IMG/VR virus record: IMGVR_UViG_3300024229_000651
Origin: a virus
Lineage: Duplodnaviria > Caudoviricetes
Length of the DNA: 64,000 nt
Direction: 5' to 3' (one strand)
The notes under the pieces are model-generated. The model was not told the origin of the DNA. It ran no database searches and was given only the letters and a program-made list of their open reading frames with translations. Both the position numbers and the translations under genes were made by a program. Below, one piece after another: positions 4,726-46,507 of the stretch. Each line of letters starts with the position of its first letter. Position 1 is the first letter of the stretch.

Positions 4726-4748
4726 TATTTATCTCCTGCATATAAATA
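4726..4748. promoter_or_regulatory. Divergent pair of late-promoter motifs
   Basis: GATAAATA on minus (4726-4733) and TATAAATA on plus (4741-4748), the latter 6 nt before ATG 4755. Confidence 0.65.
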
Positions 4749-4754
4749 TTACTG

Positions 4755-5126
4755 ATGACAAGTAATGATGATTTACAAAAAAAATTCCCTTTCTTAACGT
4801 GCATTATCTTCAATAACGCAGAATATGTTGGTATAGTTCAGAACAAAGACAATCATATAATAAGTTTTTATGATATAGAGAAGTGTGCAAACAATAAAGA
4901 AAAACGACTCATGTTAGACCATGGCGACCTATGGTGGTGGGAGAGCAACCGGCTCTTACCGATAGATGTATTTTTATACACTGAGATGAAGTCATTCAAA
5001 CATACCTTAAGATCATTTATGGTGAAAGAAGTTGAAGTTGTCTTTGGCCCTGTAACCAGTATGCAGAATATTTTAAAGAAAAGAATCAAGCGCCGCACTG
5101 TGCAGCTAGTTAAAAAAGTAGACTAA
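4755..5126 (+). CDS. Hypothetical phage protein
   Basis: 123-aa ORF with late motif, convergent with the DnaE-like gene. Confidence 0.7.
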   Translation: MTSNDDLQKKFPFLTCIIFNNAEYVGIVQNKDNHIISFYDIEKCANNKEKRLMLDHGDLWWWESNRLLPIDVFLYTEMKSFKHTLRSFMVKEVEVVFGPVTSMQNILKKRIKRRTVQLVKKVD

Positions 5127-5698
5127 GTTAACCCCTCGCAAATCAAGTTTAATTGCACAATAATTGCTGTTGCAAACGCAATTGCATGCGCCTTCTTAAA
5201 ATAATACTCACCACTTACGGGTTTATCCCACACTGTTTTGACAATTTCTTCAAACGACTCGCCTATTAAATGCTTTTTAGCAGGACGTATAATAGCCAAT
5301 ATCATCGCCAATTGTTCTACATTTACAGGTTTATAGTCTTTAACTATGTGGGCATAGTTGTTAATGTGATATAACTGACTGACAACCTCTGCATGCAGTA
5401 GTAGGTCCCACATAGGCTCAGTATTTAATAGCTTATCTAAATGTGTTTCATCACGAACGGTTTGATAGATAGTGTTATTTAAAAAATCTACTTTGAAATA
5501 TCCAGCTTTTTCAGCTTCTTTATGATCTATGGTACTGTAGCCCTTTAAAGGAAAAGTTGGTATAGGCTGGAAATAAACGCCAGTCTTATGCTTCTCAAAT
5601 TCTGAGTCACGCTTTATAGCAGCAGGTATATGGTTGATCAAGTTCAAGAACTTGTCTCTATCAGCCATATCGATATCTACATCAAAATTAATCTGCAT
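5123..5698 (-). CDS. Minimal DNA polymerase III alpha (DnaE)-like catalytic core, 191 aa
   Basis: FDVDID (cf. PDFDVD), KHKTGVY (cf. KHAGGVV), GYFKVDFL (cf. KFDFL), IRPA (cf. RPGP), YYFKKAHAIAFA (cf. YGFNKSHSAAYA). Confidence 0.8.
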   Translation of the reverse strand: MQINFDVDIDMADRDKFLNLINHIPAAIKRDSEFEKHKTGVYFQPIPTFPLKGYSTIDHKEAEKAGYFKVDFLNNTIYQTVRDETHLDKLLNTEPMWDLLLHAEVVSQLYHINNYAHIVKDYKPVNVEQLAMILAIIRPAKKHLIGESFEEIVKTVWDKPVSGEYYFKKAHAIAFATAIIVQLNLICEGLT

Positions 5699-6029
5699 TT
5701 TTCATCTTATTAAGCATTTGAACATTTTCAAACAGTGAGCGTAATTCATTGTCTTCGGGTAAGTTATTAATTGTTTCAATTAGTGCATCAAGTAACTTAA
5801 TTTTTTGCTCGTCGATTTTTGCACTTCCTACGTATAAAGAGTTATCTAGTTCTATAGTGTCACTAGAAGTGGGACCGGTTAGGATAATATCATCTAGATT
5901 CAATGTATTCAAATCAAAGGATGTAATAGTATCAGTATACATTGAATCGTGTGTAGAAATACTTAAAGGTGAGTCTACTGTAACAACGTTAAAATCTAAC
6001 GGGTAATATGGGTCATTGGGGTCATGCAT
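5688..6029 (-). CDS. Hypothetical protein
   Basis: 113-aa ORF overlapping both neighbours. Confidence 0.6.
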   Translation of the reverse strand: MHDPNDPYYPLDFNVVTVDSPLSISTHDSMYTDTITSFDLNTLNLDDIILTGPTSSDTIELDNSLYVGSAKIDEQKIKLLDALIETINNLPEDNELRSLFENVQMLNKMKNAD

Positions 6030-6315
6030 ATAAATTACTCCATTTTATTAATTTCTTTTGCTTCGCTATTTTACGTTCTTCTATATGGTCGTCGGTGACA
6101 TAGCCGTGCTGTTTTAGTAATTCTATCATTAGTATAACATCACCGATCTCATCCTGCAAGTTATTTAAGTATTTTGTTTTTCCGTTACTGCGGATAACTT
6201 TACTACAGGCTTGTATTAATTCGCCGCATTCTTCCATAGTGTTAACTAATAATTCAACTTGTCTTTCCATATTATAACTCCTCATATAAAAGGGCGTCCA
6301 TGCCCTAGTAATCAA
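6022..6315 (-). CDS. MazG-like nucleotide pyrophosphohydrolase
   Basis: EECGELIQACSK...DEIGDV (EExxE...ExxD). Confidence 0.75.
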   Translation of the reverse strand: MITRAWTPFYMRSYNMERQVELLVNTMEECGELIQACSKVIRSNGKTKYLNNLQDEIGDVILMIELLKQHGYVTDDHIEERKIAKQKKLIKWSNLYA

Positions 6316-20664: not shown

Positions 20665-21933
20665 TCAATCACTTGTAACAAAAGTGTTCAAAAATGCTTC
20701 GTATTCCTTTGTTCTGCCTTCTGCTAAATCTTCTGCTATTGGTGAAGATGCAGGGTTTTGTGCTGAGAGTAACGATGCTTTTACAGCCCTATACTCCATT
20801 GCATCTAGTGTGCCTCCATTAGATAGTTTGCTACCAATACTACCTAAGTACCTTGACAACTGCTGATCTTTTACAACTGAACTCATCTGGCCTACTTGAT
20901 AGCCTAATCTAGATCGCGGGTTTTCAAACTCTACACCGCTTTCTGCAATCATATCTTTTAGGTCGCCAAACGACTCATTAGATATAGCAGACATAATATA
21001 ACTTTCAAATGCATTTCTTCTATTAACCAAATGCTTAATAGTGTCTACTGCATTAGCAACCTTGTCGTCAAAGTGAGTTTGAGTAAAATGCTGTTCTAAG
21101 TCAACTTCTTGTATGAGCTCAACGCTACTGTGATCTGTAACACTTTCAACTGCTGACGCATATGTTTTAACACCGCTTAATTTTTTAAATGTTTTTCTAA
21201 TTTCTTCAATATTTTCAAAAGCAAGAGTAACATATTCTTGATTGCTTTCTGTTACTAAATTATTGGTCTGGACATAACGTACAAACTCTCGTAATGTTTT
21301 TAGATCGCCGCACATAGCAACAATGCTTTCACCGATATTATCGTGCATTGCTCCGCCATTATGAATATGTCGTGCCATTGCCCTTGCGCCAGCTAAATTT
21401 TTACTTGGGAAGGCAAATCGCTCTTCTCCTCGTTGTATAAAAATTTTACTAATATTCCTACTTCTTGCTCCGCGCACTTCTTCATTTACTGGCTTTGCAT
21501 GTCGAACAATTATCTTAACATTATCCAGTGGCTGGTAGCTTGTTTTTACGCTTCCGGTCATTGTGCCGAAACCTTCCATTACGCCTGATTCTTCCATTTT
21601 ACTCTCTTTTTTAATATTTGTGGATTCACTACTTGGTTTAAGTGTTTTTCCAAATACTCTAAAATCTGTTGTCATTAAGTATGTTTTTGCAAGATTTGTT
21701 AGTTGCTCTCGAAGTTTATCTGTTTGCTCTGTGTTTTCTGACACACTGAGTCTTATCTCATTATCTTCGACATTTAGTGTTACAAGCAAATTGGGGTCTT
21801 CTACAAAAAATCTAAGTGCTTCTGCTGGATCGCCGGTTACTTCACCTGCACTATCGAAAATATCGACAGAGAATCCAAAACCTTTTAAAAGCCCGTATAC
21901 TTTATCTGCGACTGTTTTTACACTAATAGCCAT
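20665..21933 (-). CDS. Hypothetical late protein, probably head morphogenesis
   Basis: 422 aa; GATAAATA at 21955-21962 and AGGAG SD; next to terminase. Confidence 0.6.
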   Translation of the reverse strand: MAISVKTVADKVYGLLKGFGFSVDIFDSAGEVTGDPAEALRFFVEDPNLLVTLNVEDNEIRLSVSENTEQTDKLREQLTNLAKTYLMTTDFRVFGKTLKPSSESTNIKKESKMEESGVMEGFGTMTGSVKTSYQPLDNVKIIVRHAKPVNEEVRGARSRNISKIFIQRGEERFAFPSKNLAGARAMARHIHNGGAMHDNIGESIVAMCGDLKTLREFVRYVQTNNLVTESNQEYVTLAFENIEEIRKTFKKLSGVKTYASAVESVTDHSSVELIQEVDLEQHFTQTHFDDKVANAVDTIKHLVNRRNAFESYIMSAISNESFGDLKDMIAESGVEFENPRSRLGYQVGQMSSVVKDQQLSRYLGSIGSKLSNGGTLDAMEYRAVKASLLSAQNPASSPIAEDLAEGRTKEYEAFLNTFVTSD

Positions 21934-21988
21934 AAACTAAAAATCTCCTAATAGTATTTATCATTTCAGACTATTAATATAGTCGTTA

Positions 21989-23587
21989 TCACAGGACACC
22001 GATTGGCATTGGCCCTTCATCGGATCCGTCATCGTATTCATTATAATTGTATGTTGTTCCGTCACCGATATTGCTGTGGATGACATCGTACACTTGGTCT
22101 TCAAATGTTCCGATAAATGATATCATTCGACATGCTATTAACATGCTCATGACTAAGTCATCTTTTGCACCTGATTGTGCTGCAAATGATGTGCCATTTG
22201 ACACAAAGTTTTTTAGCTCAGACAATAAAGGCTTGCTTGCTATCGTTAATTTATCTGACTCTATTAATCTTTTTAAAAGTATACACCCTTCCATTTTAGT
22301 TTTACTACTAGTATGGAATCCTTTTCTTCCACGATGTCCTTGTACTTTAACAGGATCATGCAACATTTGGCCTGGAAAACTTTCTTCGCCTGTTTCCCTA
22401 ATTACTAAAAGGGCCGCTTCGCCGATGGTGTTATTTTCTACAGTCCAATACAAATCTGCAGGATCGTACTGTTGTATCTCTTGTAGTATGCGTCTGAACA
22501 AAATTAATTGTTTTTCTACAGGAGTTTTATTATGGCACCATTCTGCAACCTGCGTCATACTGGGTAGTTCAACTACTTGTATAGCTGCATTATCTCTACC
22601 TGTGCCCGACGAAGGATCTAATGTAACGGCATATATGTTACCGGGAGTTGGGCGTTTGTACCACCGAATATTTTCAGCTGAGTACAAAGGGTCTGCTCCT
22701 TCTAATGCATTAATCTTTAACGGGTCGATGAGTGTTTCGTTATATATAACAAACTCACACTCGTGTTCTCTCCTAAAACGTTCTTCGCCTAAACTGGCTC
22801 TTTCCTGTCTAGCCCAATTATCATCCCGTTCCGGGTGCTGGTCCCAAGTTGCAAGATAACCTCTAAAGCCGTTAACGCCAACTGGAGTTTCGAATCCAGA
22901 CTCGTCAAACGTACTATTCGCACCGTACCATATATTAGCAAAAGTATCTTCGTCACTGTTAGGCGTACTAGTAACAATACACTTACCGCCCGTAGCAAGT
23001 GTAGGACTCAGAGACGTCCAAAATTCCGCAGCAATTCTAGGTGGAACAAACGCAAACTCGTCCAAGTACACAAGTGTCAAAGACATACCACGACCAGTTG
23101 TTTCTGTTGTGGTACTTGCAACTATTCTACTACTGTTATCAAAAGTAATGCTGCCTTTGTTGTATTCTGTCACTCCAGCTCTAATGTGGTCTGGGCAACT
23201 CTCGTATGCATATCTAATACGTTGCATAATTTCGCTGGCGCCAGTTGCTTTGTGTGCTGCAACAAGTATTGTACTGTCAGGCTTAAACATAGCATACCAC
23301 AGCAAGTATCCTGCGGCTACAGTGGTTTTACCCATCTGTCTGCCCAGCATATTAATACTGTAACGATATTCATTATAGTTTTTAATAAGATCGAGCTGAT
23401 ATTCGTAAGGGTCAAAATCTATGCCGCCCCTAGTTGGGTGTTGTATTTTAACAAAATTTTCCATAAAATACAACGGGCCGCTATCGTCATCTGCGCATTT
23501 CTTAAATTCTATGAGCATATCCCCATCGTAATCAATTTTGAGATAGGGCGGTTTGACAAGTTCTGTGTTTGCTGTTCCTTTTGGCAT
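21989..23587 (-). CDS. gp17: Terminase large subunit (gp17-like)
   Basis: PYEYQ, GRQMGKTT, YLDEFAF, TSTPN, FRREHEC, TLDPSSG, DDLVMS. Confidence 0.95.
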   Translation of the reverse strand: MPKGTANTELVKPPYLKIDYDGDMLIEFKKCADDDSGPLYFMENFVKIQHPTRGGIDFDPYEYQLDLIKNYNEYRYSINMLGRQMGKTTVAAGYLLWYAMFKPDSTILVAAHKATGASEIMQRIRYAYESCPDHIRAGVTEYNKGSITFDNSSRIVASTTTETTGRGMSLTLVYLDEFAFVPPRIAAEFWTSLSPTLATGGKCIVTSTPNSDEDTFANIWYGANSTFDESGFETPVGVNGFRGYLATWDQHPERDDNWARQERASLGEERFRREHECEFVIYNETLIDPLKINALEGADPLYSAENIRWYKRPTPGNIYAVTLDPSSGTGRDNAAIQVVELPSMTQVAEWCHNKTPVEKQLILFRRILQEIQQYDPADLYWTVENNTIGEAALLVIRETGEESFPGQMLHDPVKVQGHRGRKGFHTSSKTKMEGCILLKRLIESDKLTIASKPLLSELKNFVSNGTSFAAQSGAKDDLVMSMLIACRMISFIGTFEDQVYDVIHSNIGDGTTYNYNEYDDGSDEGPMPIGVL

Positions 23588-23592
23588 ATTGC

Positions 23593-23600
23593 TATTTATG
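23593..23600 (-). promoter_or_regulatory. Late-promoter motif 5 nt before terminase ATG
   Basis: CATAAATA GCAAT ATG. Confidence 0.65.
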
Positions 23601-24468
23601 TACTGACTGCTTCCAAACTCGTGAAAACTAAGCTCTCCTCGAAAAGATCATACATATGCTTTTGAATATCGACTTCATGCTCTACAAACAGTTGGTGCAT
23701 AGAATTTTGCGAAGAGGTTTTGTCAAAATAATCATAGACAATTTTTTTGTAATAATTATCAGCACTAATTACTTTTTCCCATACATCGTCTGGCAATTTT
23801 ATATCAAACACACTGGTAATAAAATTAGCATGCTCTAAAATAGAGGGGTGGAAGTCTGAATAGTCTGGGTGGAACTCAGTGATCACTGAATCTCGTTTGT
23901 TGTCTATATTATTAGACCAAAGAACTTGGTAAAAGCTATCTGTTAAAAAAGGAGTTATGTGCGGTTTATAAAAGTCTACTATAGAGGCAAATCTAGAGGA
24001 TTTAGTTATTTCTGTTTCCCATTGGTCGAGAGATTCAAACATGTCGACCATTTGTAAAAATTTAAAATTAGTTTTATACTGCAATAACTGCGAAGATGCA
24101 TACACAACTGTATAATCTCTTAATGCAGAATTACAATCGTTAACGTAATTTTCTACATAGTTGTCATTATATAAACTCTGAGTGTATACGTTGCCGGGCG
24201 TGATCCATTTGTCTGTTTTGTCAAAGAAACGATCTTCGCGACGAATATTTGTCCACTGCACAATTACAAGGTCACGTTTAGTAAATTTATAGTGTATATC
24301 AGCTTGTTGTAATTTTGTAAAAATAAACTGATTGCCGGCGCCGCCTGTGGCGTAATTATAATATTCTATGTTGGGGTTAGCTGTAGCGAGTATATCGGCC
24401 CAAGTAGGATAACACCATTGAGTGAAACTACAGCCGAATACAAACAGCCGATCAATTTCGGAAAACAT
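23596..24468 (-). CDS. SGNH-hydrolase-like protein (paralog of 2038..2844)
   Basis: LFVFGCSFT, GAGN, VQWT, C-terminal DFHP. Confidence 0.5.
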   Translation of the reverse strand: MFSEIDRLFVFGCSFTQWCYPTWADILATANPNIEYYNYATGGAGNQFIFTKLQQADIHYKFTKRDLVIVQWTNIRREDRFFDKTDKWITPGNVYTQSLYNDNYVENYVNDCNSALRDYTVVYASSQLLQYKTNFKFLQMVDMFESLDQWETEITKSSRFASIVDFYKPHITPFLTDSFYQVLWSNNIDNKRDSVITEFHPDYSDFHPSILEHANFITSVFDIKLPDDVWEKVISADNYYKKIVYDYFDKTSSQNSMHQLFVEHEVDIQKHMYDLFEESLVFTSLEAVST

Positions 24469-24947: not shown

Positions 24948-24948
24948 C

Positions 24949-25644: not shown

Positions 25645-25668
25645 AAGTGTAAAACTCCTCGTTACACT

Positions 25669-25683
25669 TATTTATCATAAATA
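25669..25683. promoter_or_regulatory. Back-to-back late-promoter motifs
   Basis: TATTTAT-C-ATAAATA perfect inverted repeat between divergent genes. Confidence 0.65.
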
Positions 25684-25691
25684 GTAAAAGT

Positions 25692-26327
25692 ATGTACATT
25701 AAGATTAGACCAGACCAATTCAACCGTATGAGATCGTGGACTGTTCCACTAGAAAATCAGTGTTGCCCTAATATCAAATTGTTAAACAAATTTGATCAGA
25801 CTGGTTACGACTTATGTGAGCTAGAGCAACAATATGCCGCAATAAACACAGACATTGTTACTAAAATGAGATACAAAAACTCTATACGCAAAGATTGGTT
25901 AGAGTTTGACATTTTAGATCGAGGTGCGCACATAAACCATGCAGACTTATACGAGAGAAAAGGATTCGGTGGATACGCATTAGAACAAATAAATCATTGG
26001 GCTCCGTGCTGTCCTATTTTGTACAAACTTTCCAAATTAAAAGGAAAATGGGGGATAGATCTCAGCATAGATTATGTTGATAATCAGGGTAATGTATTTG
26101 AATTGTTTCACTACGAATGGGACGACTTTGAGTTATCGTCTGTACAAGATAAAAAAGAACAGATTGAAGAGATTTTGCTCAACACCGATTGGGATGATGT
26201 TGCATTAAAAAAATTAGCTAGAAAAGACGAATGGAAGAACTTAAATTTCTTTGAGCAAAGTGCTTGGACTACAAAATTTTTGGGTTTGCCGGAAGAGAGA
26301 TATAAACTTAATCCTTGGAATTTATAA
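25692..26327 (+). CDS. Hypothetical protein
   Basis: 211-aa ORF 8 nt after CATAAATA. Confidence 0.7.
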   Translation: MYIKIRPDQFNRMRSWTVPLENQCCPNIKLLNKFDQTGYDLCELEQQYAAINTDIVTKMRYKNSIRKDWLEFDILDRGAHINHADLYERKGFGGYALEQINHWAPCCPILYKLSKLKGKWGIDLSIDYVDNQGNVFELFHYEWDDFELSSVQDKKEQIEEILLNTDWDDVALKKLARKDEWKNLNFFEQSAWTTKFLGLPEERYKLNPWNL

Positions 26328-26802
26328 TTTTTAGCAATTCGTTCCTGTCTAACGAACCACCAGACCCTGCATCACTAGATTTACCAACATTATTCCTGTC
26401 TAACCGCTCTTTCTTAATCATAAGATCAATTTGTCGCAACTTTGCAGTAATTTTACTATCCCTTGCTTGCAGTGCGGTAGTCAACATCTTACTTGCGCTA
26501 TCAAAAATGCTTCCAGCTTCTCTGTCACCTACATTCATACCTAGATTCATTAGCTGCTGATAACTGTCGACTGCTTGTTGAGCAATATCATCCATCTCAT
26601 CACTGTGGTCTTCTAACCCTTTTACACTAGACAGAGCTTTATCTATTTTTTCAGCGTTAGTAAGTGCACGTTGCACTTCTTCGACACTGATAATTTCTGT
26701 AGATTCGACTTCGTCGGGCATATCAAACAATTCGTCATCTGATTCTATAGATGTTTGAGACATTGGCGGTAAATTAAATTCTTCTTCGAGTTTCTTAGTC
26801 AT
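26308..26802 (-). CDS. Probable terminase small subunit (gp16-like)
   Basis: Helical protein with gp16-like central helices; start reset to MTKKLEEEF, 5 nt after CATAAATA. Confidence 0.5.
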   Translation of the reverse strand: MTKKLEEEFNLPPMSQTSIESDDELFDMPDEVESTEIISVEEVQRALTNAEKIDKALSSVKGLEDHSDEMDDIAQQAVDSYQQLMNLGMNVGDREAGSIFDSASKMLTTALQARDSKITAKLRQIDLMIKKERLDRNNVGKSSDAGSGGSLDRNELLKIINSKD

Positions 26803-26807
26803 AACAG

Positions 26808-26822
26808 TATTTATGATAAGTA
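26808..26822. promoter_or_regulatory. Back-to-back late-promoter motifs
   Basis: TATTTAT-G-ATAAGTA; each half is 5 nt from an ATG (26802 minus, 26828 plus). Confidence 0.65.
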
Positions 26823-26827
26823 TTATC

Positions 26828-27502: not shown

Positions 27503-27516
27503 ATTTACCTGCTGTA

Positions 27517-27984
27517 TTACTTTCTGCGTTTGCGTTTTGGAGTGGTTCGTTTCTTAGGATTATTTCTAAAGATTTGGTCTTCCGTAATTACCTTAAAGTG
27601 TATGCCTTTATTTTTAGCCCACTCCATTGCAGCGGTCCACTTAACTGCATTAACTTGAGTAGCCATTTTGTCACCGGGGCCTTTAGCATTTTCGATTACT
27701 GTTTGGCTTTTGGGCTTAATTTCAATTAGCTCTACTCGAGTTTTGCCATTTTTATCTTCGTATTGTACCATAAAGTCGGGTACGTAATTAGTTATTTTAC
27801 CTGTAAACGGATGTCTATAAGGTATTTTAACATTCTCGCTTGCCCATTTCTTTATGTTAGGATGTTGATCGCAAAAACGCATAAAGGTTGTTTCCCAGCT
27901 ACTCCGTGCAAAGGGAGGTTTTGTGCCGGCGTACTTTTCTGGGTTTTGTATTGTATAAATACCTTGCGAATATTTAGAAGCCAT
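27517..27984 (-). CDS. gp4: Head completion protein (gp4-like, TnsA-type nuclease fold)
   Basis: RSSWE, WASE..IPY, YVPDF, EIKPKSQT, VNAVKW, FKVITE. Confidence 0.88.
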   Translation of the reverse strand: MASKYSQGIYTIQNPEKYAGTKPPFARSSWETTFMRFCDQHPNIKKWASENVKIPYRHPFTGKITNYVPDFMVQYEDKNGKTRVELIEIKPKSQTVIENAKGPGDKMATQVNAVKWTAAMEWAKNKGIHFKVITEDQIFRNNPKKRTTPKRKRRK

Positions 27985-27989
27985 TCGTA

Positions 27990-28421
27990 TTATGGCCTTA
28001 TGATTTTAGCAACTCTGCTTTTAGAATTATCTTTTAACAATGATAAGCCTACTAAATTGCCTTTAGGCCGAACAGTGTTCAACGCAGAATATGTGTCTGC
28101 TGCTAATCTGATAGCATCGTCATTTAAGTCAAAATAACTCATAGGATGTACTCCTTGCATCTTTGCGATCTTTATTAATGCTATAGCTAGAGCGTTTGTA
28201 GTCAACTCACCGAAACCAATATTAGTTAGCCGGGCTTTAACAGCATCTACACGAGTTGCTTCGATGCCTTCCTGGTCTGGATCAAGCATAGATGTTAATA
28301 TGTCTACACTAGCTTCAGGAATAGGAAACGCTACAGTACTGTTTTGTAAAAACTTTACCAGCTTTCCTCGTCGAACAGTGTAACTTACTTCATTTCCAAA
28401 TGTTTCGTATAAACTTTGCAT
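27990..28421 (-). CDS. Hypothetical protein
   Basis: 143-aa ORF in late cluster. Confidence 0.65.
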   Translation of the reverse strand: MQSLYETFGNEVSYTVRRGKLVKFLQNSTVAFPIPEASVDILTSMLDPDQEGIEATRVDAVKARLTNIGFGELTTNALAIALIKIAKMQGVHPMSYFDLNDDAIRLAADTYSALNTVRPKGNLVGLSLLKDNSKSRVAKIIRP

Positions 28422-28427
28422 AAATTA

Positions 28428-29477
28428 TTAACCCGGATTAAAATTATTCCAAAAATCTTGATTTTGCTCGGCTCTCAACGAGGATGTTTCTTTACCTGTT
28501 TCACTTGGAGCGAGGAAACCAGCAGAATAATTGATTAAGTGTTTATTTTCAGCGGTCGTCTTGCCTGCAACTGATCCTCCTGGAATATCTTCACCTAGAT
28601 CTTCGTCGGTGCCAGCTGATGTACGCAGTCTTTCCCAAATTCCCTGACTAAAATTACCCCATCGCTTCATATCATCTTCGGGTATAAAGCTGTTAATGTT
28701 TGGATCAATGCTGAAACTTTCGTAACTGATTTCCATCTGTATTGTTATAGGCTGAGAAGAAGAATAATCTAAACTGTCTACTTTAAAACTTGTAACTATA
28801 GGATTAAACATTGTATACCGCACATAGCGTTGAGCATGATAAACTAGTAAGTCTATATGAGTTAAGAAATTACGTTCTGCGCCTGGTCTAATATTTAACC
28901 CGTTATTATTTTCGTTCCAAATTTGAGTGAAGCCACTCATTGTATCAGCTGTTGCACTACCTGTAGTTAATTTCTCAGGAACAACATCATATGGACGTAT
29001 CTTAGGTATCGATGTTCCGTCAGACTGAGTTTCAAACTTATTCATAGGATTCAAAAACATGTGTTGATACATTCTCATTAGTGTGATAACCCATGCACTG
29101 TCTATTGTGTCATAAACTGTGATACTAATAGGCTTATATTCGATACCGCTTACTGTAATACGTTTTTTATTATACTGATTATGGGTATCTGTTTGCATTT
29201 CGAACGACGGGAACTCTGCTGTTTTAACTAAACTGCTTAATCCATTTAGAAAATCTTTCGTTGCAGAACCACTCGGTATTGCATCATTAAAATAAAAATT
29301 AACAAGGCCTTGAAACTGCTGTCTTACTAAATTTTGATCAGGATTTAAATGTTTAGCGTTGTTTGCTGTACTTAAATAAGCACCTTGATCGCCGCCAATA
29401 CCATCTTCTATCTCAACCGATGTTCCGTTGAACGTTTCAAGTTGCGATTCGTATATTTGTTTTAATAATTTGCGCAT
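28428..29477 (-). CDS. Tail-tube-fold protein (gp48/gp54-like tube initiator)
   Basis: LVKTAEFPSF...YKPISITVYDT and LDYSSSQPITIQMEISYE resemble the gp19 fold; downstream of tube gene; GATAAATA ATAGT ATG. Confidence 0.55.
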   Translation of the reverse strand: MRKLLKQIYESQLETFNGTSVEIEDGIGGDQGAYLSTANNAKHLNPDQNLVRQQFQGLVNFYFNDAIPSGSATKDFLNGLSSLVKTAEFPSFEMQTDTHNQYNKKRITVSGIEYKPISITVYDTIDSAWVITLMRMYQHMFLNPMNKFETQSDGTSIPKIRPYDVVPEKLTTGSATADTMSGFTQIWNENNNGLNIRPGAERNFLTHIDLLVYHAQRYVRYTMFNPIVTSFKVDSLDYSSSQPITIQMEISYESFSIDPNINSFIPEDDMKRWGNFSQGIWERLRTSAGTDEDLGEDIPGGSVAGKTTAENKHLINYSAGFLAPSETGKETSSLRAEQNQDFWNNFNPG

Positions 29478-29495
29478 ACTATTATTTATCCTTTA

Positions 29496-29526
29496 TAAAA
29501 ACGAATAACCGCCTGGCGGCGGTTAT
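29496..29526 (-). terminator. Intrinsic terminator after tail tube gene
   Basis: ATAACCGCC/GGCGGTTAT 9-bp stem then TCGTTTTT on minus. Confidence 0.8.
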
Positions 29527-29570
29527 AAGTTATATAGGTGTTCCTAAAAAATACTATAAAATAAAGTATT

Positions 29571-30197
29571 TTATACGCCGTCTGCGCTTGGACCTTCGAA
29601 TGCGTTATCACCAGTACCGGACATATCTAATCCGCCACCTGAGCCAATTGCGCCTGCGCCTGCCTTGTGAATAGCATTGTCGTAACGTATGCTCAATGTA
29701 ATTTGAACTGGTTCGTTAGTTGCGTAATCACTGTCACTGTAATCAACGTTAGTCAAGAAGCAACCTTCTAATTCCCAAAATTCTAATTCATTTGCAGTTG
29801 AACCGTCTAGGATTTCAATTCGCATATCAAACTTGTAGTCTTCGCCCGCTAATGGAGCTGTTTGCTCTAAGTGGTTTAACTGACGCTGCTGTTGTGCACC
29901 AACAATTCTAGAAACGCTGTTGGTAACATCGTCACGTAGAACAATTTGAATCGCTTCCCAGGCATGCTTGCCTTGTACATATACACGTGAGTTGTAGCTG
30001 TGAATTTCTACTTCTTCATAACTAACTTTAGGTCGTGATACGTTTACAACATTTTGTGTAAATCTTCGCTGCCCTGCTTCGTCATCGCCGCCGAATCCGC
30101 TTAACATTGTTACACGGAATCTAAACTTTAGTTTAGGCATTAAAATGCCAGCTTCGCCTGCTACTACAGGAACACCAAATTTATCTTTAGTAGCCAT
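29571..30197 (-). CDS. gp19: Tail tube protein (gp19-like)
   Basis: FRFRV, YVQGKHAWE, WELEGCF, ITLSIRYD; follows sheath; GATAAATA 30248-30255, AGGAG SD. Confidence 0.88.
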   Translation of the reverse strand: MATKDKFGVPVVAGEAGILMPKLKFRFRVTMLSGFGGDDEAGQRRFTQNVVNVSRPKVSYEEVEIHSYNSRVYVQGKHAWEAIQIVLRDDVTNSVSRIVGAQQQRQLNHLEQTAPLAGEDYKFDMRIEILDGSTANELEFWELEGCFLTNVDYSDSDYATNEPVQITLSIRYDNAIHKAGAGAIGSGGGLDMSGTGDNAFEGPSADGV

Positions 30198-30297
30198 TTA
30201 TGTTATCTCCTAATTACTTTTTAAGTCTATAAGACTGTCGTTACTTTTATTTATCAAAACTGGCAGAAATTTGTTAAAAGGCACTTTAATTTGCCAA

Positions 30298-33126: not shown

Positions 33127-33266
33127 GTTATATCTCCTATCTAAATACTTTGTACCCTTGTTAACAATAGTATAGTATGTAGATATTTATCTAAAGTAGC
33201 GCAAAACCGTATTATTTAGAAAGGGGGTACAAGGTTTTTAGAAGTTTTTGATAAATAAACGATTTT

Positions 33267-35517: not shown

Positions 35518-36285
35518 TTATCCTATAACAAATCCTAATGGAGAATTGCCTTCTTCCATGTTGTGTATTTCTGCAATCAGCGTTTCCATTTCAGACATTG
35601 CTTCTGTTTTTAATGCATCGCCGTTTAAAGTTACTGCGCCGCCGGGGCCAGGTAGGCCACTAGTAAACTTACTTCTAGCTTCTCCTAGCATAAACTTAGC
35701 TTGGGCTAAAGCAAAATTGGACAACCAAGGACTTGCATACACATCCGTTAATAATACTGATTCCGGAATGAAGTTATATGTGCCTACAGCAACATCCTCG
35801 CCGTGTCTAACATTACGTAATATTGTTAGCTCTTTGGTATTTCGATTATAAGTGAAATTATATTCGCTACCGAATATTCTACCTAATGTTTCTTTATACT
35901 GTGCAAAAGCATCAAATGTTGCTAGTCCACCTAACTGTCCGGCTTGTAGCATATACATGTTATTAAATGCCACATCAAACGGATCAAAGTTTGTGCCGCC
36001 GCCGCTGTTAGTACCTACACCACGTCGGTACAGTCGTTTAACGTCTATCACTTCGCTAGGTAACGTGTACTTAGTTACATCAGGTTGCGTCTGGATCCAG
36101 ACAATGCTTTCTTCTACAGACCCCGAACTAAGTTGTCTATACTTAGCCATTGCTTTGTTAATAGCAATGTCATAATGGTCTCTGTCTAATTCAACGTCAA
36201 CCATGCCGTCTCCTAATCGGAGTTTCAATTCTCTAATTAAGTCGTCCCGCGATCCGTAACCGCTACTATCTATTCTAGTGTTCAT
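35518..36285 (-). CDS. gp13: Neck protein (gp13-like)
   Basis: VDVEL, YTLPSEVI, ALAQAKFMLGEARSKF...LPGPGG.VTLNG, FVIG end; GATAAATA GTGTT ATG. Confidence 0.85.
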   Translation of the reverse strand: MNTRIDSSGYGSRDDLIRELKLRLGDGMVDVELDRDHYDIAINKAMAKYRQLSSGSVEESIVWIQTQPDVTKYTLPSEVIDVKRLYRRGVGTNSGGGTNFDPFDVAFNNMYMLQAGQLGGLATFDAFAQYKETLGRIFGSEYNFTYNRNTKELTILRNVRHGEDVAVGTYNFIPESVLLTDVYASPWLSNFALAQAKFMLGEARSKFTSGLPGPGGAVTLNGDALKTEAMSEMETLIAEIHNMEEGNSPLGFVIG

Positions 36286-36321
36286 AACACTATTTATCTT
36301 ATTCTGCTGTACTTGAAGGGA

Positions 36322-39547: not shown

Positions 39548-39623
39548 TGGTGGAGCTGGAGGGGATCGAACCCACGACCTTCTGGATGCAAACCAGACGC
39601 TCTCCCTACTGAGCTACAGCCCC
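39548..39623 (-). tRNA. tRNA-Ala(TGC)
   Basis: 76-nt cloverleaf, TCTGG-TTTGCAT-CCAGA anticodon arm, G3:U70, encoded CCA. Confidence 0.97.
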
Positions 39624-39631: not shown

Positions 39632-39844
39632 TTATTTATTCGGATCTCCCCACGGGGTGGACTCTTCGATGGCATCTTGAGCACACTGTATATAGTCTTT
39701 GTCTTCCTCTGTCAACACAGACCAAAACTTGCTGACAGTAAGTGTGTGTTCATAAACTTCTAGTGGGTTTTCTAGATGGTAATCGCTTTCCATCCAGGCT
39801 TGCAATTGATCCATTCTATCATTAATCTTTTCTTTAAGATTCAA
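39632..39844 (-). CDS. Small hypothetical protein
   Basis: 70-aa ORF between tRNAs with AAGGA SD. Confidence 0.65.
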   Translation of the reverse strand: MNLKEKINDRMDQLQAWMESDYHLENPLEVYEHTLTVSKFWSVLTEEDKDYIQCAQDAIEESTPWGDPNK

Positions 39845-39860: not shown

Positions 39861-39936
39861 TGGAGCGGGTAACGAGGCTCGAACTCGTGACCTCAACCTT
39901 GGCAAGGTTGCGCTCTACCAACTGAGCTACACCCGC
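39861..39936 (-). tRNA. tRNA-Gly(GCC)
   Basis: 76-nt cloverleaf, CAACC-TTGCCAA-GGTTG, encoded CCA. Confidence 0.97.
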
Positions 39937-39942: not shown

Positions 39943-40230
39943 CTATTTATTTCGCTTAACCCACAGATGCCCGTTCTTCTCGGCGTCATGGAATACTGTA
40001 GCTGTGACAAAGAATGCCCCGACAACTAACAGGTGTCCTCCCACACTGTAGATTCCGTAGTAAATCGTATAGCCTGCCCATGCAGTAAATACTGCTGACC
40101 ACATTACAGACAAATAAAACATCAGAATAAATTGTGTATACGGACTAGGAATATGACGTAATGGGTTGTACTTTAGATTAAAAAAGTAATTATAAAGATC
40201 GTAAATTGCAAATCCAAGTTTCTTAAACAT
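39943..40230 (-). CDS. Small membrane protein
   Basis: 95 aa, two hydrophobic helices, AGGAG SD. Confidence 0.7.
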   Translation of the reverse strand: MFKKLGFAIYDLYNYFFNLKYNPLRHIPSPYTQFILMFYLSVMWSAVFTAWAGYTIYYGIYSVGGHLLVVGAFFVTATVFHDAEKNGHLWVKRNK

Positions 40231-40383: not shown

Positions 40384-40412
40384 GAACTATTTAAAGTGAT
40401 AAATATAACATT

Positions 40413-41441
40413 ATGCCAAGACTTAGCCTATGGAATCAACACAAGACAAACGATCACAACTTTATAGATAATTTAGTTGGTGAGAGTATTAATGCCGGTG
40501 GAACGGGTGTATTCGTACACAAGTACATAGGCACTTACAAGGACGACACTAGTAGTAGTATTGGGTCCGGTGATACGTATATACAAGATGTACTATTCTT
40601 AGAAAATCGAGATAGAAAGTACGATCAAAATATATACGAGTTACGTGGTGCTTATAATATTGCTGATCCCGAGTTTGACCTTACACAATTCGGTTTATTT
40701 GTTGCAGACCAAGGGCTAAGTATGACTTTTCATATGAATACCATAGCAGAAGTATTAGGTCGAAGGTTAATGCCAGGAGATGTGCTTGAGTTACCTCATC
40801 TACGTGATGATTTATTGTTGGATGGTGGGGAAGCAGTAAACAGATTTTTTGTAGTAGGCGATGCTGGAAGACCAGCTGAAGGATATGATGCTAGATGGTG
40901 GCCTCATTTGTGGAAGGTTAAATTAGCAAACATTACAGATAGCCCAGAGTATCGAGATATATTAGGAACAGGCGCAGAGGCTGATGATTTAAGAAACATT
41001 CTCAGTACTTATAGCACAGAAATTGCTATATCAGACAAAGTCTTAGAATTAGCAGCAGAAGAAGTGCCGTATGACGGCGGCTATTATGAAGGTGGTCACC
41101 TTTATGTAGATCCTGACAGCCGCGACAAACCTGGTGTATATTTCCCGGGTGATGGCGAGCCGCCAAACGGTGTAAGTATTGTAGGTAGCGGTGAAACTTT
41201 TCCGGTTGCTGCTAATAACGAAGACTATTTTTTAAGAACAGACTTTTCACCTCATCGACTTTTTCAAAAGTCTGGTAATACATGGAAACGTATTAGCGAC
41301 GACAACAAGAAAGTCTGGAATGCTGCAAACCGAGTACTCACATCGTTCATTAACAATGATACTATCACAATAAATACAGACGGCACACAGAAGCCTGAGA
41401 AAACAAATTTAAGTAAGGCTGTTAAGCCAAAGGCGGACTAG
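40413..41441 (+). CDS. gp14: Neck/head-closure protein (gp14-like)
   Basis: FLENRDRKY, FDLTQFGLF, LMPGDVLELPH; precedes gp15-like gene; GATAAATA 40398-40405. Confidence 0.75.
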   Translation: MPRLSLWNQHKTNDHNFIDNLVGESINAGGTGVFVHKYIGTYKDDTSSSIGSGDTYIQDVLFLENRDRKYDQNIYELRGAYNIADPEFDLTQFGLFVADQGLSMTFHMNTIAEVLGRRLMPGDVLELPHLRDDLLLDGGEAVNRFFVVGDAGRPAEGYDARWWPHLWKVKLANITDSPEYRDILGTGAEADDLRNILSTYSTEIAISDKVLELAAEEVPYDGGYYEGGHLYVDPDSRDKPGVYFPGDGEPPNGVSIVGSGETFPVAANNEDYFLRTDFSPHRLFQKSGNTWKRISDDNKKVWNAANRVLTSFINNDTITINTDGTQKPEKTNLSKAVKPKAD

Positions 41442-41444: not shown

Positions 41445-42854
41445 ATGGATTATTGGTACGACGAACAACTAAGAAGATATCTTTTGCAGTTTATGCGAAT
41501 CTTCGGAGGCTTTCAGGTTAAGGAAGGCAAGCGAGACGGTGTCGAGTACTATAATAAAGTGCCTGTTAGATATGCCGATATGAATCGAATGGTTGCTCAC
41601 ATACTAAAGAAGGGCAGCGAGAACATGGTAAACAGTACACCGTTTATATCTTGTAGTATTTCGTCATTACTTATCGCCCGGGATCGAGCGGCTGATCCGT
41701 TACTAGTTGACAAAGTGCAAATTGCAGAAAGACAGTATGACGATGATGCTGGGGAATATGTGGGGCAAGACGGCGAAACTAAATTTCCAGGAAATCTTTA
41801 TACTACAGATAGATACATGCCTGTTCCGTATAATTTAACCATGAACATCGACATATGGAGTGGCAACACTGATCAAAAATTACAATTACTCGAGCAAATA
41901 TTAATACTGTTTAACCCAAGCCTAGTACTTCAATCAAGTACTAACCCGTTAGACTGGACTAGTTTGTTCGAAGTCGAGTTAACAGACATTCAGTGGAGTA
42001 ATAGAAGTATGCCAGCTGGTGTCGATGAGACAATCGACATTGCGACTTTAACATTCACTCTACCTATTTGGCTTAATCCGCCTGCGAAAGTTAAACGACA
42101 AAAAATTATTAACACAATCGTTACGAATATAACAGACACTAGCAGTATCAACGACTTGGGCTATGATGAGGACATTTATGACTTTTTCAGAACCTTAGAC
42201 AAGCAATTTCAATTACATACTATTAGCCCTAACAACTATCGTCTAGAGGTTGTAGGCTCAGAAGCAACATTATATAAAGATAACGGAACAATATTAGCAA
42301 ATTGGAATGATTTATTAGAAGTTTTAAGCCCGCAAGGAAGTTCGGGAACAGCAGATACGCAAAATGTTGACCTGGACGACATACCATTAACGCCTGGCAG
42401 CACCATTCAATTGAATTTATCTAATAATGTATACGACACAGATCAACAAATAACAGGATCTGTGGTCCGAAACACTATTGACTCAACAAAATTAATATTT
42501 ACACTTGACCAAGACACATTACCTGCTAATACACTGACTAATTTAACAAGAATTGTCGACCCAGTTGCTAGTTTTCCAGGTGACGGTAACTTAGCTGCTG
42601 TAGCAACTGGACAAAGATACTTGTTAACTAACGAAATACAAGGAAATGTCTGGGGTATTACTGCATATACCAATGACATTATCGAATATAACGGTGCTGC
42701 ATGGGATGTAGTATTTGACTCTCGTATGCAATTAGATAATACGCACTATATAGAAAACACATACACAAACAAACAATACAAATGGGAAGATGCACAGTGG
42801 ACGAGCTCGCACGAGGGAATTTACAACCCGGGATACTGGATCCTAAATGTATAA
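41445..42854 (+). CDS. gp15: Tail sheath stabiliser/terminator (gp15-like) with C-terminal extension
   Basis: YWYDEQLRRY, KVPVRYA, VPYNLT, QLLEQILILFNPS, TLTFTLPIWL. Confidence 0.8.
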   Translation: MDYWYDEQLRRYLLQFMRIFGGFQVKEGKRDGVEYYNKVPVRYADMNRMVAHILKKGSENMVNSTPFISCSISSLLIARDRAADPLLVDKVQIAERQYDDDAGEYVGQDGETKFPGNLYTTDRYMPVPYNLTMNIDIWSGNTDQKLQLLEQILILFNPSLVLQSSTNPLDWTSLFEVELTDIQWSNRSMPAGVDETIDIATLTFTLPIWLNPPAKVKRQKIINTIVTNITDTSSINDLGYDEDIYDFFRTLDKQFQLHTISPNNYRLEVVGSEATLYKDNGTILANWNDLLEVLSPQGSSGTADTQNVDLDDIPLTPGSTIQLNLSNNVYDTDQQITGSVVRNTIDSTKLIFTLDQDTLPANTLTNLTRIVDPVASFPGDGNLAAVATGQRYLLTNEIQGNVWGITAYTNDIIEYNGAAWDVVFDSRMQLDNTHYIENTYTNKQYKWEDAQWTSSHEGIYNPGYWILNV

Positions 42855-43273
42855 AAGCCTGCGGTGCAGTGTTTCTGTCGCTCGACACCGGGCGTTGCCT
42901 ATTACAACTACGCAATAGTAAAAAGAAACATAGACATACCTGGGGATTTTTTGGAGGTATCATCGATTCGGGTGAATCTCCATACGAGTGTCTCCAGCGT
43001 GAGTTAACTGAAGAGATGGGTTTTGTCCCAGAATTGCATAAACTAAATCCACTCGATACATATCAAAGCAAAGACAAGAGATTTATGTACTATAGTTTTG
43101 CATACATAGTAGATAAAGAGTTTATGCCAACATTAAACAACGAGAGTGCTGGGTATGCTTGGGTAAACATAGGTGTATGGCCCAAACCGTTACACGAAGG
43201 ATGTAAAGCAACACTAGAAAGGAATTCTGGGACTACTAAACTACACACTATACTGTCTATTAATAACCAATAA
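42782..43273 (+). CDS. Nudix hydrolase (start uncertain)
   Basis: GGIIDSGESPYECLQRELTEEMG Nudix box. Confidence 0.85.
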   Translation: MGRCTVDELARGNLQPGILDPKCIKACGAVFLSLDTGRCLLQLRNSKKKHRHTWGFFGGIIDSGESPYECLQRELTEEMGFVPELHKLNPLDTYQSKDKRFMYYSFAYIVDKEFMPTLNNESAGYAWVNIGVWPKPLHEGCKATLERNSGTTKLHTILSINNQ

Positions 43274-43281
43274 ATAGTAGC

Positions 43282-43905
43282 ATGAAAGAAATAATTGATT
43301 TCACTGCTGCTCGTATAGAGGCAGAGTTAAACAAATTTCAAAAAAACAAGCGTATACCAACTGTATTTATAGATGGTACTTACACCATTGCTGATGTAGA
43401 AAGCGTATTTGATAAATTATCAAAAAAACATCAGCGCATTGCAATAAAGTTCATAGACCATTTCAAAGAAAATATTGCAGAGAGTTCTGAGCAACTATCG
43501 GAGAACTTTTTTAAAGATTACCAATCGTTTATACAAGATCAGCGGACTAGAGATGATGGTTGGGCATTTCCAGCAGTTATGTCTAGGTTTAGAGACAATA
43601 TTAATCCGGTTAGGGCAGTAATATACGATGCTAGAGAAATAGTGAGATCGTATTCTAGTGAAAATCCGCGACACATTTGGATGCATGCTATACTTACAGA
43701 AAATGAATTTCATAACAGGCTGTTAGATGCGATTATAACTGACCGAAAGCGAGTAGATAAGATTTTAAATGCATACTTACCGTTGTATAATGGAGCAGAT
43801 TTGCCCGAGCCATTACAAATGATACATCTTCGAAGATTACGAACAGATTTATTAGAATATGCAAACACTATTATAGAATTAAAAAACTGGGAACCGGAAG
43901 AATAA
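43282..43905 (+). CDS. Hypothetical helical protein
   Basis: 207 aa; AATAAATA GTAGC ATG. Confidence 0.7.
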   Translation: MKEIIDFTAARIEAELNKFQKNKRIPTVFIDGTYTIADVESVFDKLSKKHQRIAIKFIDHFKENIAESSEQLSENFFKDYQSFIQDQRTRDDGWAFPAVMSRFRDNINPVRAVIYDAREIVRSYSSENPRHIWMHAILTENEFHNRLLDAIITDRKRVDKILNAYLPLYNGADLPEPLQMIHLRRLRTDLLEYANTIIELKNWEPEE

Positions 43906-43906: not shown

Positions 43907-45979
43907 TTATTTTGTGGTTGCTATAAATATTCCGTCCCAGTCTGCAGGCAACTCTTGTGTTTTCATATACTCGCAACGCTCAATCCACATGTCGTAGTAA
44001 CCTGCCATTTTGCCGTTAAACTCCTTTTTAAGATCATTGCAGTATACTATAGCGGTATCAAACATTTGATCTTTGTATGCTTCATGCATTTTTTCATGGA
44101 CTTGTTGTGGCATTGCCCAGTCTGTATTAGTCATCATCCAATCCATTTTACACAATACAGTGTATATAGAAATGCCAACTGTTTTTCCTTTAACTGCTAA
44201 GTCATCTACCTTTAAATAAAAGAAGTCATCCTTAGTTTTTTCGTATGTGCTGCCGCCTACTAGTAATAAGCACCCGTATTCTTTGCACTTAGACTCAATT
44301 CGTGCGGCAGTTGATACAGCATCTCCAAGTACATCATAACTATGTCTGCTTGTAGAGCCCATCTCACCGAGATAACCAACGCCAGTGTTAATGCCAGCCC
44401 CCATACCAATTGGAGGTCTTCCCTCTGCTGTGATCTTATCATTAAATTTCTCCACTGCTGTTAACATGTCCAAACCGGTTTGCACTGCTGAGTGTTCATG
44501 CTTTGCATCATCGTTTGGTGCATTGTGTATATGCATACTTGCATCACCTATGTACTTGATAATCATACCGTCTGCATCAAGTACAGGTTGCGTGATAGCA
44601 TCCATATATCCATTCATTAGTTTTGTGAGTCCTTGTACATCATCTCCAAAACTTTCACCTAATGGTGTGAAGCCACGCAAGTCTGAAAAGCATATTGATA
44701 TCTCTCGCTTCATGCCTTCTTTGATCAACGCAGGATTTTCTTTTAACATACGCACCACTGTAGGCGAACAATATCCAGCAAATTGTTTTTCAATCTCTTG
44801 TCTTAATTTAAACTGTATCCAGAAGTTGTTAAAACTTGCCTGTGTAAAGATTAAGAATGCACTTATTGCAGGAAAAGTAGCATCAAATAAAACTAAGTTT
44901 GCTGTATAAGAATGTATAGTATAATAAGCAATAGACCCTATAATGCTTACTGTAGTAAACAATCCTGCCCATACGGGCAACTTATATATTGCTAGAGCAA
45001 CTAATATCATGCTCAACAACGCACACAGAAGCTCTGTAAGCAACGATAACTCGGACCTGGTAATATTACTACCGTCTATAAAGTTTTGTAGCATAGACGC
45101 TTGTATGTGCTGTGGTAATGTGTTGCCTACCGGAGTGGGCACCGGATTGGCAACACCTTCTGCACTCACACCCACTATGACAAACTTTCCACCTAAGTCA
45201 GGCAGTTCACTTGCATCTACATATTCGTATTCTTCAAATGTATTGTTGAACCGTATATATGCAGTCCCGTTTGGCTGTGTCACTATTGGGTCAAAAGGCG
45301 GCACAGCAAATTCCTGTATTCCTATCTCACTAGTTTTTAGTATGTAACTCGGCTTACCTGTATAAGTCCTTAACATCTCAATAGCAAAACTAGGGTATAT
45401 CTTTCCCTCTACTCCAATTGCTAATGGGTAGGTCCTTGTTTGGTTATCTGGCTGTGGCGCAGAAGCAATCACTCCAATACCAGCAGAAGTATTTTCTAGT
45501 ATCTCAATATTTTTTACAATATTCGGCCAAGTCAGCAGGTAGTTAGTAGCAGACACTGGTCCTATAGTTGCTGTACCGATATGAGGAGCTGAAGTTCTAA
45601 CGCCTTTAGCAGATGGTGCTTGGCTTAGAACTACGCCGTTGTCAGTCATCCAACTTGCTAAAACTTCATCTCCGCCGAATCTATCTGCTTCTGGGAACAT
45701 GAAATTTAAACCAATTATACCTGCATTATGATTTCGCAAGTCCGATATTAGTTGTGCAAAATTCTGTCTTGGCCAGGGCCATTGTCCCCACTGTTGTAGG
45801 CTTTTTTCGCCAATGTTTATTACTACAACTTCGTTGCTTTGTTTAACTTCATCTAATTGTTGATAGTAATCGAATGTCTGTGAACGCAGACTTTGAACTG
45901 GGACGGGATCAGCAACTCGTAGAGTTGTCAATAGTAATACAGATATTGCTACGGCCCACCCGCTTAGTAACCATTTCAT
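43907..45979 (-). CDS. CHASE2-domain class III adenylate cyclase
   Basis: N-terminal anchor, CHASE2 motifs (QWGQWPWPRQ, FPEADR, PTPVG), 3 TM helices, FSDLRGFT, KYIGDA, GINTG, YDVLGDAVSTAARIES. Confidence 0.92.
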   Translation of the reverse strand: MKWLLSGWAVAISVLLLTTLRVADPVPVQSLRSQTFDYYQQLDEVKQSNEVVVINIGEKSLQQWGQWPWPRQNFAQLISDLRNHNAGIIGLNFMFPEADRFGGDEVLASWMTDNGVVLSQAPSAKGVRTSAPHIGTATIGPVSATNYLLTWPNIVKNIEILENTSAGIGVIASAPQPDNQTRTYPLAIGVEGKIYPSFAIEMLRTYTGKPSYILKTSEIGIQEFAVPPFDPIVTQPNGTAYIRFNNTFEEYEYVDASELPDLGGKFVIVGVSAEGVANPVPTPVGNTLPQHIQASMLQNFIDGSNITRSELSLLTELLCALLSMILVALAIYKLPVWAGLFTTVSIIGSIAYYTIHSYTANLVLFDATFPAISAFLIFTQASFNNFWIQFKLRQEIEKQFAGYCSPTVVRMLKENPALIKEGMKREISICFSDLRGFTPLGESFGDDVQGLTKLMNGYMDAITQPVLDADGMIIKYIGDASMHIHNAPNDDAKHEHSAVQTGLDMLTAVEKFNDKITAEGRPPIGMGAGINTGVGYLGEMGSTSRHSYDVLGDAVSTAARIESKCKEYGCLLLVGGSTYEKTKDDFFYLKVDDLAVKGKTVGISIYTVLCKMDWMMTNTDWAMPQQVHEKMHEAYKDQMFDTAIVYCNDLKKEFNGKMAGYYDMWIERCEYMKTQELPADWDGIFIATTK

Positions 45980-45984
45980 AATAA

Positions 45985-45992
45985 TATTTATC
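45985..45992 (-). promoter_or_regulatory. Late-promoter motif 5 nt before cyclase ATG
   Basis: GATAAATA TTATT ATG. Confidence 0.65.
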
Positions 45993-46488
45993 GTATCTTA
46001 CGGCAGGTATTACTGGCTTCGAACCACACATCAAAGTTATTAGCAACTACGGCTGTCATCATGTAATTTATTCCTGCTAAGTCTGCGTCAGTTACAATGT
46101 CGGTCTTATTAGTATGCCATAGTGTAGGAGCAAGTAACACTAATTTCAGTCCTAGTATGTCGGTTGCAGTTGGCGATTTGCCAAGTATAGGATTGACTTC
46201 TTCTACACAGCTATATTGTAATGCTCTGTCACTTGTGTACACATCTAATACTTGTAACGCATAGAATAATGACCATGTAAGTTTAGATGCTGGTTCTTTT
46301 AATGATGGTAAGTTTAGTTCAACCTGTGGAGGATATTCATATGTAGGTTGATTAACTTGATCTAATACTGCTTGACTGTAACAACAAGTATCGCCTGCAT
46401 TAATGAAGTGTATTTGACTCTTAGTTAAACTAATAGCATAACTAGACGAGGAAAGTAAACTTATAACAACAACAATACACCATTTCAT
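45988..46488 (-). CDS. Secreted/membrane hypothetical protein
   Basis: Signal-like N-terminus MKWCIVVVISLLSSSSYA; start reset to ATG 5 nt after GATAAATA (46494-46501). Confidence 0.65.
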   Translation of the reverse strand: MKWCIVVVISLLSSSSYAISLTKSQIHFINAGDTCCYSQAVLDQVNQPTYEYPPQVELNLPSLKEPASKLTWSLFYALQVLDVYTSDRALQYSCVEEVNPILGKSPTATDILGLKLVLLAPTLWHTNKTDIVTDADLAGINYMMTAVVANNFDVWFEASNTCRKIR

Positions 46489-46507
46489 AATTTTATTTAT
46501 CAAAAGA

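Follow-up and report, generated by a model that had tools for sequence, protein, structure and literature searches.

Late genes of an uncultured marine jumbo myophage, represented here by IMG/VR virus record IMGVR_UViG_3300024229_000651, often have their promoter fused to the start codon: a T4-type late box with the core ATAAATA lies exactly 5 nt, or in fewer cases 6 nt, upstream of the ATG, and transcription probably starts on the A of that ATG, so that these genes would yield leaderless messenger RNAs (mRNAs). The window, which is the whole stretch of DNA that was analyzed, is 64,000 nt long, corresponds to bases 205543–269542 of one 339,794-bp contig (G000:C1), and contains the genes for TerL, tail sheath, tail tube, head-tail adaptor, several virion structural proteins, UvsX, and SSB; positions given without a contig label are window positions. 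Hereafter, genes with a promoter box 5 or 6 nt before the ATG (spacers N5 and N6, with other spacers written likewise) are called fused, and genes with a longer leader that carries GGAG, a Shine-Dalgarno (SD) sequence, are called SD-led. In a crude gene call of the whole genome, which gave 376 genes, the fused class comprised ~28 genes with late boxes and seven with host-type promoters, together roughly 9% of the total, and 7–10 of the late-fused genes lie in the window.

The genome itself has been recovered repeatedly. A version of ~339.6 kb was found assembled from many seawater samples with differing start points (L159–L167), which suggests that the genome is circularly permuted or terminally redundant, and that it is essentially complete. 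Its TerL shares 55% identity with the TerL of Pseudomonas phage PA5oct; for CBB, BF, and other related giant phages, the figure is ~45%.

Spacing provides the most direct evidence for fusion. In the window, ATAAATA-N5-ATG occurs eight times, compared with 0.62 ± 0.69 expected from 100 dinucleotide-preserving shuffles (maximum 2); seven of the eight matches open an open reading frame (ORF), and the eighth precedes a gene for tRNA-Gly. Across the whole genome, an ATG stands at spacer 5 in 19 of 121 ATAAATA sites and at spacer 6 in 8 of 121 (binomial P = 1.8e-12), whereas the other ATAAATA spacers, and all 20 other heptamers composed of five A and two T, give only ~2–3 each. The preliminary description, made from the sequence of the window, had proposed a genome-wide comparison of ATAAATA-to-start distances with a shuffled background, and the N5 peak rises far above the heptamer controls genome-wide, as it does above the shuffles in the window. 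The same signal emerged without a preset motif when every hexamer at spacers 0–14 before the ORF-opening ATGs of the genome was counted: TAAATA at spacer 5 was the top positional hexamer (20 sites), and AGGAGA at spacer 5, an SD hexamer, was next (17 sites).

Distances from a box to the first ATG that opens an ORF have a bimodal distribution: they are either 5 nt (17 sites) or 6 nt (7 sites), or else fall in a broad hump of 16–32 nt that is accompanied by GGAG; between N6 and 16 nt there are almost no distances in the genome, and ~40% of the assignable late boxes are fused. Start codon use in the fused class is exclusive, with ATG accounting for all 17 starts at N5 and all 7 at N6 and with neither GTG nor TTG represented (0 each); GUG and UUG are poor start codons on leaderless mRNA. 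Additionally, of the 28 fused sites, 27 have a pyrimidine at −1 of the ATG; the corresponding share of SD-led starts is 46% (P = 9e-9). The box fills positions −12 to −6 of fused genes, GGAG is absent from their 5-nt spacers, and the spacing of GGAG in the genome is spread over 5–8 nt.

Several features point to the box as a late promoter. Its consensus is (G/A/C)ATAAATA, and CTAAATA and GTAAATA variants are also present before late genes; the ATAAATA core given in the preliminary description was borne out, whereas the base placed before the core was not, G being preferred and T never occurring in the fused class. There is no conserved −35 element; upstream of the box, no base from −12 to −2 is conserved, the only exception in the flank being G at −1. 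The genes preceded by late boxes include those for sheath, tube, portal, TerL, adaptor, baseplate wedge, and virion structural proteins. The flanking bases preferred (G just before the box and, after it, T at +2 and +5 and A at +6) do not differ between fused and SD-led boxes, which are therefore best regarded as one promoter type. Because the T at +5 and the A at +6 are enriched in SD-led promoters as well, the sixth base is independently, if indirectly, marked as a likely pyrimidine-purine start site.

A gp55-family late sigma gene, for which a search had been proposed, was located outside the window (G000:C1 ~289154–290026, − strand, 290 aa). The product matches T4 gp55 (E = 4.4e-6), phrog_12791, annotated as “sigma factor for late transcription” (E = 2.5e-93), and phrog_234 (E = 8.7e-24). 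The gene is itself preceded by TTGACT-N17-TATACT with a 40-nt leader containing GAGGAG (G000:C1 ~290026–290095, − strand), and a host-type promoter on the late sigma gene fits an early-to-late cascade.

The geometry of both promoter classes points to the same position of +1. In T4, the first T of the late promoter TATAAATA is numbered −13, the box spans −13 to −6, and gp55 functions with gp33 and the gp45 clamp (PMC2988020). With a box that ends at −6 in the T4 numbering, an N5 spacer places +1 on the A of the ATG. Host-type promoters resembling TTGAC-N16-18-TATAAT number 61 in the genome, and seven of them are fused to an ORF ATG (five at N6, two at N5), the remainder being 19–44 nt from the ATG with none at 7–18 nt. 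The example in the window is TTGACT-N16-TATAAT at 3837..3864 on the − strand (−35 at 3864–3859, −10 at 3842–3837), N6 before the ATG at 3830 of a gene for a 329-aa protein (2841..3830). The canonical sigma70 start distance from the −10 is N6; since N5 is the T4-late distance, each promoter class is fused at its own expected +1. Furthermore, since the seven host-type promoters are presumably early or middle, the layout is not specific to late genes.

Seven fused late boxes open ORFs at N5 in the window, six of them on the − strand. The box of terL (21989..23587) is at 23593..23599 (−), before the ATG at 23587. A box at 26808..26814 (−) precedes the ATG at 26802 of a gene for a 164-aa protein (26308..26802), which matches a PHROG of unknown function, the earlier label “terS-like” being unverified. 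The box at 29483..29489 (−) precedes the ATG at 29477 of a gene for a tail-tube-like protein of 349 aa (28428..29477), and that at 36291..36297 (−) precedes the ATG at 36285 of the head-tail adaptor gene, which is Ad2/gp13-like (35518..36285). On the + strand, a box at 43270..43276 stands before the ATG at 43282 of a gene for a 207-aa protein with no family (43282..43905). The remaining two are a box at 45985..45991 (−) before the ATG at 45979 of a 690-aa gene product (43907..45979) and one at 46494..46500 (−) before the ATG at 46488 of a gene for a 166-aa protein (45988..46488), whose start at the same N5 ATG is also called in independent assemblies. The product of 43907–45979 (−) has CHASE2 and guanylate/adenylate cyclase domains (Pfam), and a sensor-cyclase is unusual as a late phage gene.

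All seven of these sites agree with the preliminary description, as does the GATAAGTA variant at 26815..26822 (+), N5 before the ATG at 26828 of an ORF that extends to 27502; this variant is an uncertain member of the class, the gene being found in one or two relatives only. Boxes at slightly different spacers were likewise correctly placed at 4742..4748 (+), N6 before the ATG at 4755 (gene 4755..5126), and at 25677..25683 (+), N8 before the ATG at 25692 (gene 25692..26327). An N7 spacer had been assigned to a gp14 gene; the spacer is real, but its box (40399..40405, +) precedes the ATG at 40413 of a virion structural protein gene (40413..41441), and gene 37455 lacks a late box and instead has a 40-nt leader downstream of a host-type promoter.

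The comparators named earlier are SD-led as claimed. The tail sheath gene (ATG at 33126) has its box at 33184..33190 (−), 57 nt upstream, and the tail tube gene (ATG at 30197) has its box at 30248..30254 (−), 50 nt upstream; the structural protein gene with its ATG at 21933 has a box at 21955..21961 (−), a 21-nt spacer, and an AGGAG SD; the gene with its ATG at 25644 has a box at 25669..25675 (−), a 24-nt spacer, and GGAG; and gene 600 has its box at N18. A second sheath-related gene (41445–42854, +; 469 aa), with matches to phrog_11196 (tail sheath) and phrog_227 (sheath stabilizer), lies on the strand opposite to the main 928-aa sheath gene.

Two pairs of late boxes in the window are back to back and divergent (TATTTAT-N-ATAAATA), each serving one SD-led gene and one fused or near-fused gene. 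At 25669–25683, the boxes of 25644 and 25692 adjoin, and at 4726–4748, the box of 4755 is paired with a divergent late box (4726–4732, −) that drives the SD-led gene 4695. Similar pairs occur elsewhere in the genome, at G000 ~160294/160309 and 290133/290144. Late boxes also precede tRNA genes, one (39944–39950, −) lying 7 nt before tRNA-Gly (39861–39936), another (39633–39639, −) lying 9 nt before tRNA-Ala (39548–39623), and a third located at G000:C1 ~169145. By the same geometry, the primary transcripts of tRNA-Gly and tRNA-Ala would have 5′ leaders of only ~2–4 nt.

To follow the layout in related phages, IMG/VR was scanned with TerL, which yielded 80 loci at 65–72% identity and 1.1 Mb in all. 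In ~70 of the 80 relatives, (A/C)TAAATA-N5-ATG is present at terL, with divergence in both the upstream flanks and the letters of the spacer. Dereplicated contexts in the relatives comprise 144 at N5, 22 at N6, 0 at N7, and no more than 3 at each spacer from 7 to 15, followed by a second hump at 18–40. Of 59 loci orthologous to 26802, nearly all have the N5 spacer, in some cases with the GTAAATA variant, and the 25644 family is SD-led in 64 of 64, with T-A at spacer positions 5–6. In the 21933 structural protein family, orthologs alternate between an exact N5 spacer and an SD-led leader without intermediates; the 27984 family has acquired N5 or N6 boxes in some lineages, and orthologs of 25692 in more distant relatives are N5 or N6. 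Such clean two-state switching without intermediates is expected under selection for a 5′-terminal AUG. A terL sub-clade (L052, L054, L057, L060, L072, L074, L075, L080, and L081) has a different arrangement, in which box-N5-ATGGAG is followed by 7 nt and then by the terL ATG; this amounts to a 13-nt GGAG leader that begins at the predicted +1 A, and the old ATG opens just a 6-codon out-of-frame ORF.

In the mechanism proposed, the gp55-family sigma would steer host RNA polymerase, in T4 fashion, to a −10-type box, (G/A/C)ATAAATA. At the ~28 genes with this box exactly 5 (more rarely 6) nt from the ATG, the first transcribed base would be the A of the start codon, giving an mRNA with neither 5′ leader nor SD, and the ribosome with initiator tRNA would bind the 5′-terminal AUG directly. 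Other late genes would be transcribed from the same box with a GGAG-bearing leader of ~16–60 nt, and leaderless expression may be a general option of the phage, host-type promoters included. The placement of +1 on the ATG, already put forward in the preliminary description, has strong support from the statistics of the sequence, the geometry of the promoters, and the relatives; for the RNA itself, +1 and a leaderless mode of translation are what we infer from these patterns.

Some observations weigh against leaderless expression. No terminator is present upstream of 25 of the 28 fused sites, which are located at the end of the preceding gene, and the fused genes could thus also lie on read-through transcripts, on which the box would be in the SD position. 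The sigma's distance to +1 is borrowed from T4 by analogy, and if +1 is fixed, the N7 and N8 sites (40413 and 25692) would imply leaders of 1–3 nt. A T4 gp45 query had no sequence match to a gp45-like clamp in the genome. Finally, leaderless expression presumes a host, whichever it may be, that is able to translate leaderless mRNA. Clear terminators precede 2 of the 28 sites, with a weaker one, a hairpin and T-run, just upstream of the site at 29477; at 46488, in favor of leaderless expression, an intrinsic terminator hairpin and T-run (dG −12.7) stops 1 nt short of the box, and 13 nt remain before the ATG. Upstream terminators were accordingly discarded as a general proof of autonomous transcription, as they hold for few genes (2–3 of 28).

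The missing terminators also favor a quite improbable alternative, namely that the A/U-rich box (−12 to −6) substitutes for an SD on the RNA, for example via ribosomal protein S1, and that the genes are not leaderless but are translated by internal initiation on polycistronic late transcripts. Read-through is likely where a fused gene directly follows another gene without a terminator, and the box sits exactly where an SD usually lies. However, the same box with the same flanks also lies 16–60 nt ahead of genes with a GGAG of their own, where it can have no ribosome-site role, and its spacing in the relatives is far tighter than the spread of GGAG in this genome. The pyrimidine at −1 is a signature of transcription starts, and clear −35/−10 promoters are fused likewise with an offset of one base; in Deinococcus, experiments identified the analogous box as a promoter rather than a ribosome-binding site (PMC12340547).

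It is also rather unlikely that the boxes, although true late promoters, have their +1 a few bases up or down or chiefly serve genes further downstream, with the tight spacing a product of genome compaction. Compaction would spread the short distances, whereas a single spike with an empty zone at 7–15 nt is observed, and it leaves unexplained both the exclusive use of ATG and the fact that late and host-type fusions differ by one base, in line with their known geometries. The start distance borrowed from T4 and the existence of N6, N7, and N8 variants speak for a shifted +1, and the terL sub-clade with its 13-nt GGAG leader indicates that box and start codon are separable, yet that leader starts exactly at the predicted +1 A. 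A chance origin in AT-rich intergenic sequence would be in keeping with the number of ATAAATA sites in the window, which is not over-represented by itself (32 vs. 26 expected), but was rejected as virtually impossible given the window shuffles, the genome-wide binomial test, the 20 flat heptamer controls, and the retention of the layout in 80 relatives.

The preliminary description had further suggested that low-copy morphogenesis proteins are made from leaderless mRNAs and high-copy proteins from SD-led mRNAs. In agreement with this idea, the sheath, tube, and major capsid protein genes are SD-led, the last without a box of its own, and the fused class includes those for TerL, the adaptor, a tube-like protein, and a baseplate wedge protein. 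As a rule, however, it fails: the low-copy portal is SD-led (N22), host-type promoters are fused, and the fused genes also include enzymes, specifically a sugar epimerase, a radical SAM enzyme, and the CHASE2-cyclase. The toggling of the 21933 family between the two layouts likewise speaks against it. Stoichiometry is at most a tendency rather than a rule. The other benefit put forward, resistance to toxins directed at leaders, is speculative.

T4-type late transcription and leaderless mRNA are each textbook subjects, and the cI transcript of lambda from PRM is a phage mRNA that starts at its AUG. Many middle and late transcripts of Thermus phage phiYS40 reportedly begin at the AUG and are leaderless; the host phylum of phiYS40 is naturally rich in leaderless mRNA, and its promoters are not of the gp55 type. 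In poxvirus late promoters, the TAAATG initiator overlaps the ATG of the gene, and transcription is by the virus's own polymerase, with a 5′ poly(A) head made by slippage; the late-promoter core is likewise on the ATG, but these are eukaryotic viruses, and the likeness is an analogy only.

T4 itself shares with the present phage the ATAAATA core, the lack of a conserved −35, a gp55-family sigma, and the location of boxes before virion and morphogenesis genes. It differs in that no T4 box lies <12 nt from an ORF ATG, all leaders bear an SD, and the first base of the box is T, whereas here it is G, A, or C. ATAAATA has also been proposed as the late promoter of the jumbo phages CBB and GAP32, where it precedes structural genes and is accompanied by a gp55-like sigma; homologs of gp33 and gp45 were not detected in CBB (PMC5259590). 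Unlike the phage described here, CBB, whose TerL is the ~45% identical one, has all of its boxes 10–60 nt from the ATG and none fused. PA5oct, the closest cultured relative, has a handful of N5 boxes, ~2 of them convincing and none at terL, and is therefore a poor model for the fused layout despite its RNA-seq data. HTVC008M, a cultured SAR11 myophage of Pelagibacter, has 12 TAAATA-N5-ATG ORF starts, compared with ~1 per neighboring spacer, and similar GTAnT spacers, although it is a 147-kb T4-like phage of another family.

Among bacteria, a −10 box lies 6–7 bp before ORFs in Deinococcus-Thermus, alongside a GGAG class genome-wide, and has been shown experimentally to act as a promoter (PMC12340547). 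This arrangement resembles the seven TATAAT-N5/6-ATG host-type promoters of the phage but belongs to a bacterial phylum and its housekeeping sigma, whereas here both host-type promoters and a phage late sigma are involved, the latter with a shorter start distance and thus N5. A search of the literature on leaderless mRNA with late promoters, cyanophage, pelagiphage, jumbo phage, and TATAAATA found no publication on fusion of late promoters with start codons. The parts are known separately, as T4 late promoters, leaderless mRNAs, and ORF-adjacent −10 boxes, and their systematic fusion appears to be the new aspect.

A bS21 ribosomal protein homolog is encoded outside the window (G000:C1:145827–145979, − strand; PF01165, 46 bits, above the cut-off), with a TTG start and an apparent N-terminal extension; an IF3 homolog was not found in a search of the genome. 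Any tie between the phage bS21 homolog and leaderless translation is speculative. A broader scenario, which is rather unlikely at present, is that leaderless translation is standard, from host-type and late promoters alike, in SAR11 myophages and in a large clade of giant phages from marine and fresh waters, and that host ribosomes are actively retuned toward 5′-terminal AUGs late in infection, perhaps via the bS21 homolog. If true, this would be a phage-directed switch of the mode of initiation, which is not known for any T4-like virus.

Leaderless expression of the fused genes predicts RNA 5′ ends on the A of fused ATGs, and six seawater metatranscriptome runs contain 78–97% of window positions 21000–30000. 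If confirmed, the fused layout would constitute a compact promoter-plus-start module of ~15 bp, and gene and start calling would change for thousands of aquatic phage genomes, because callers based on the SD mis-start fused genes. It would also mean that leaderless mRNA is an efficient template for translation in abundant marine hosts.

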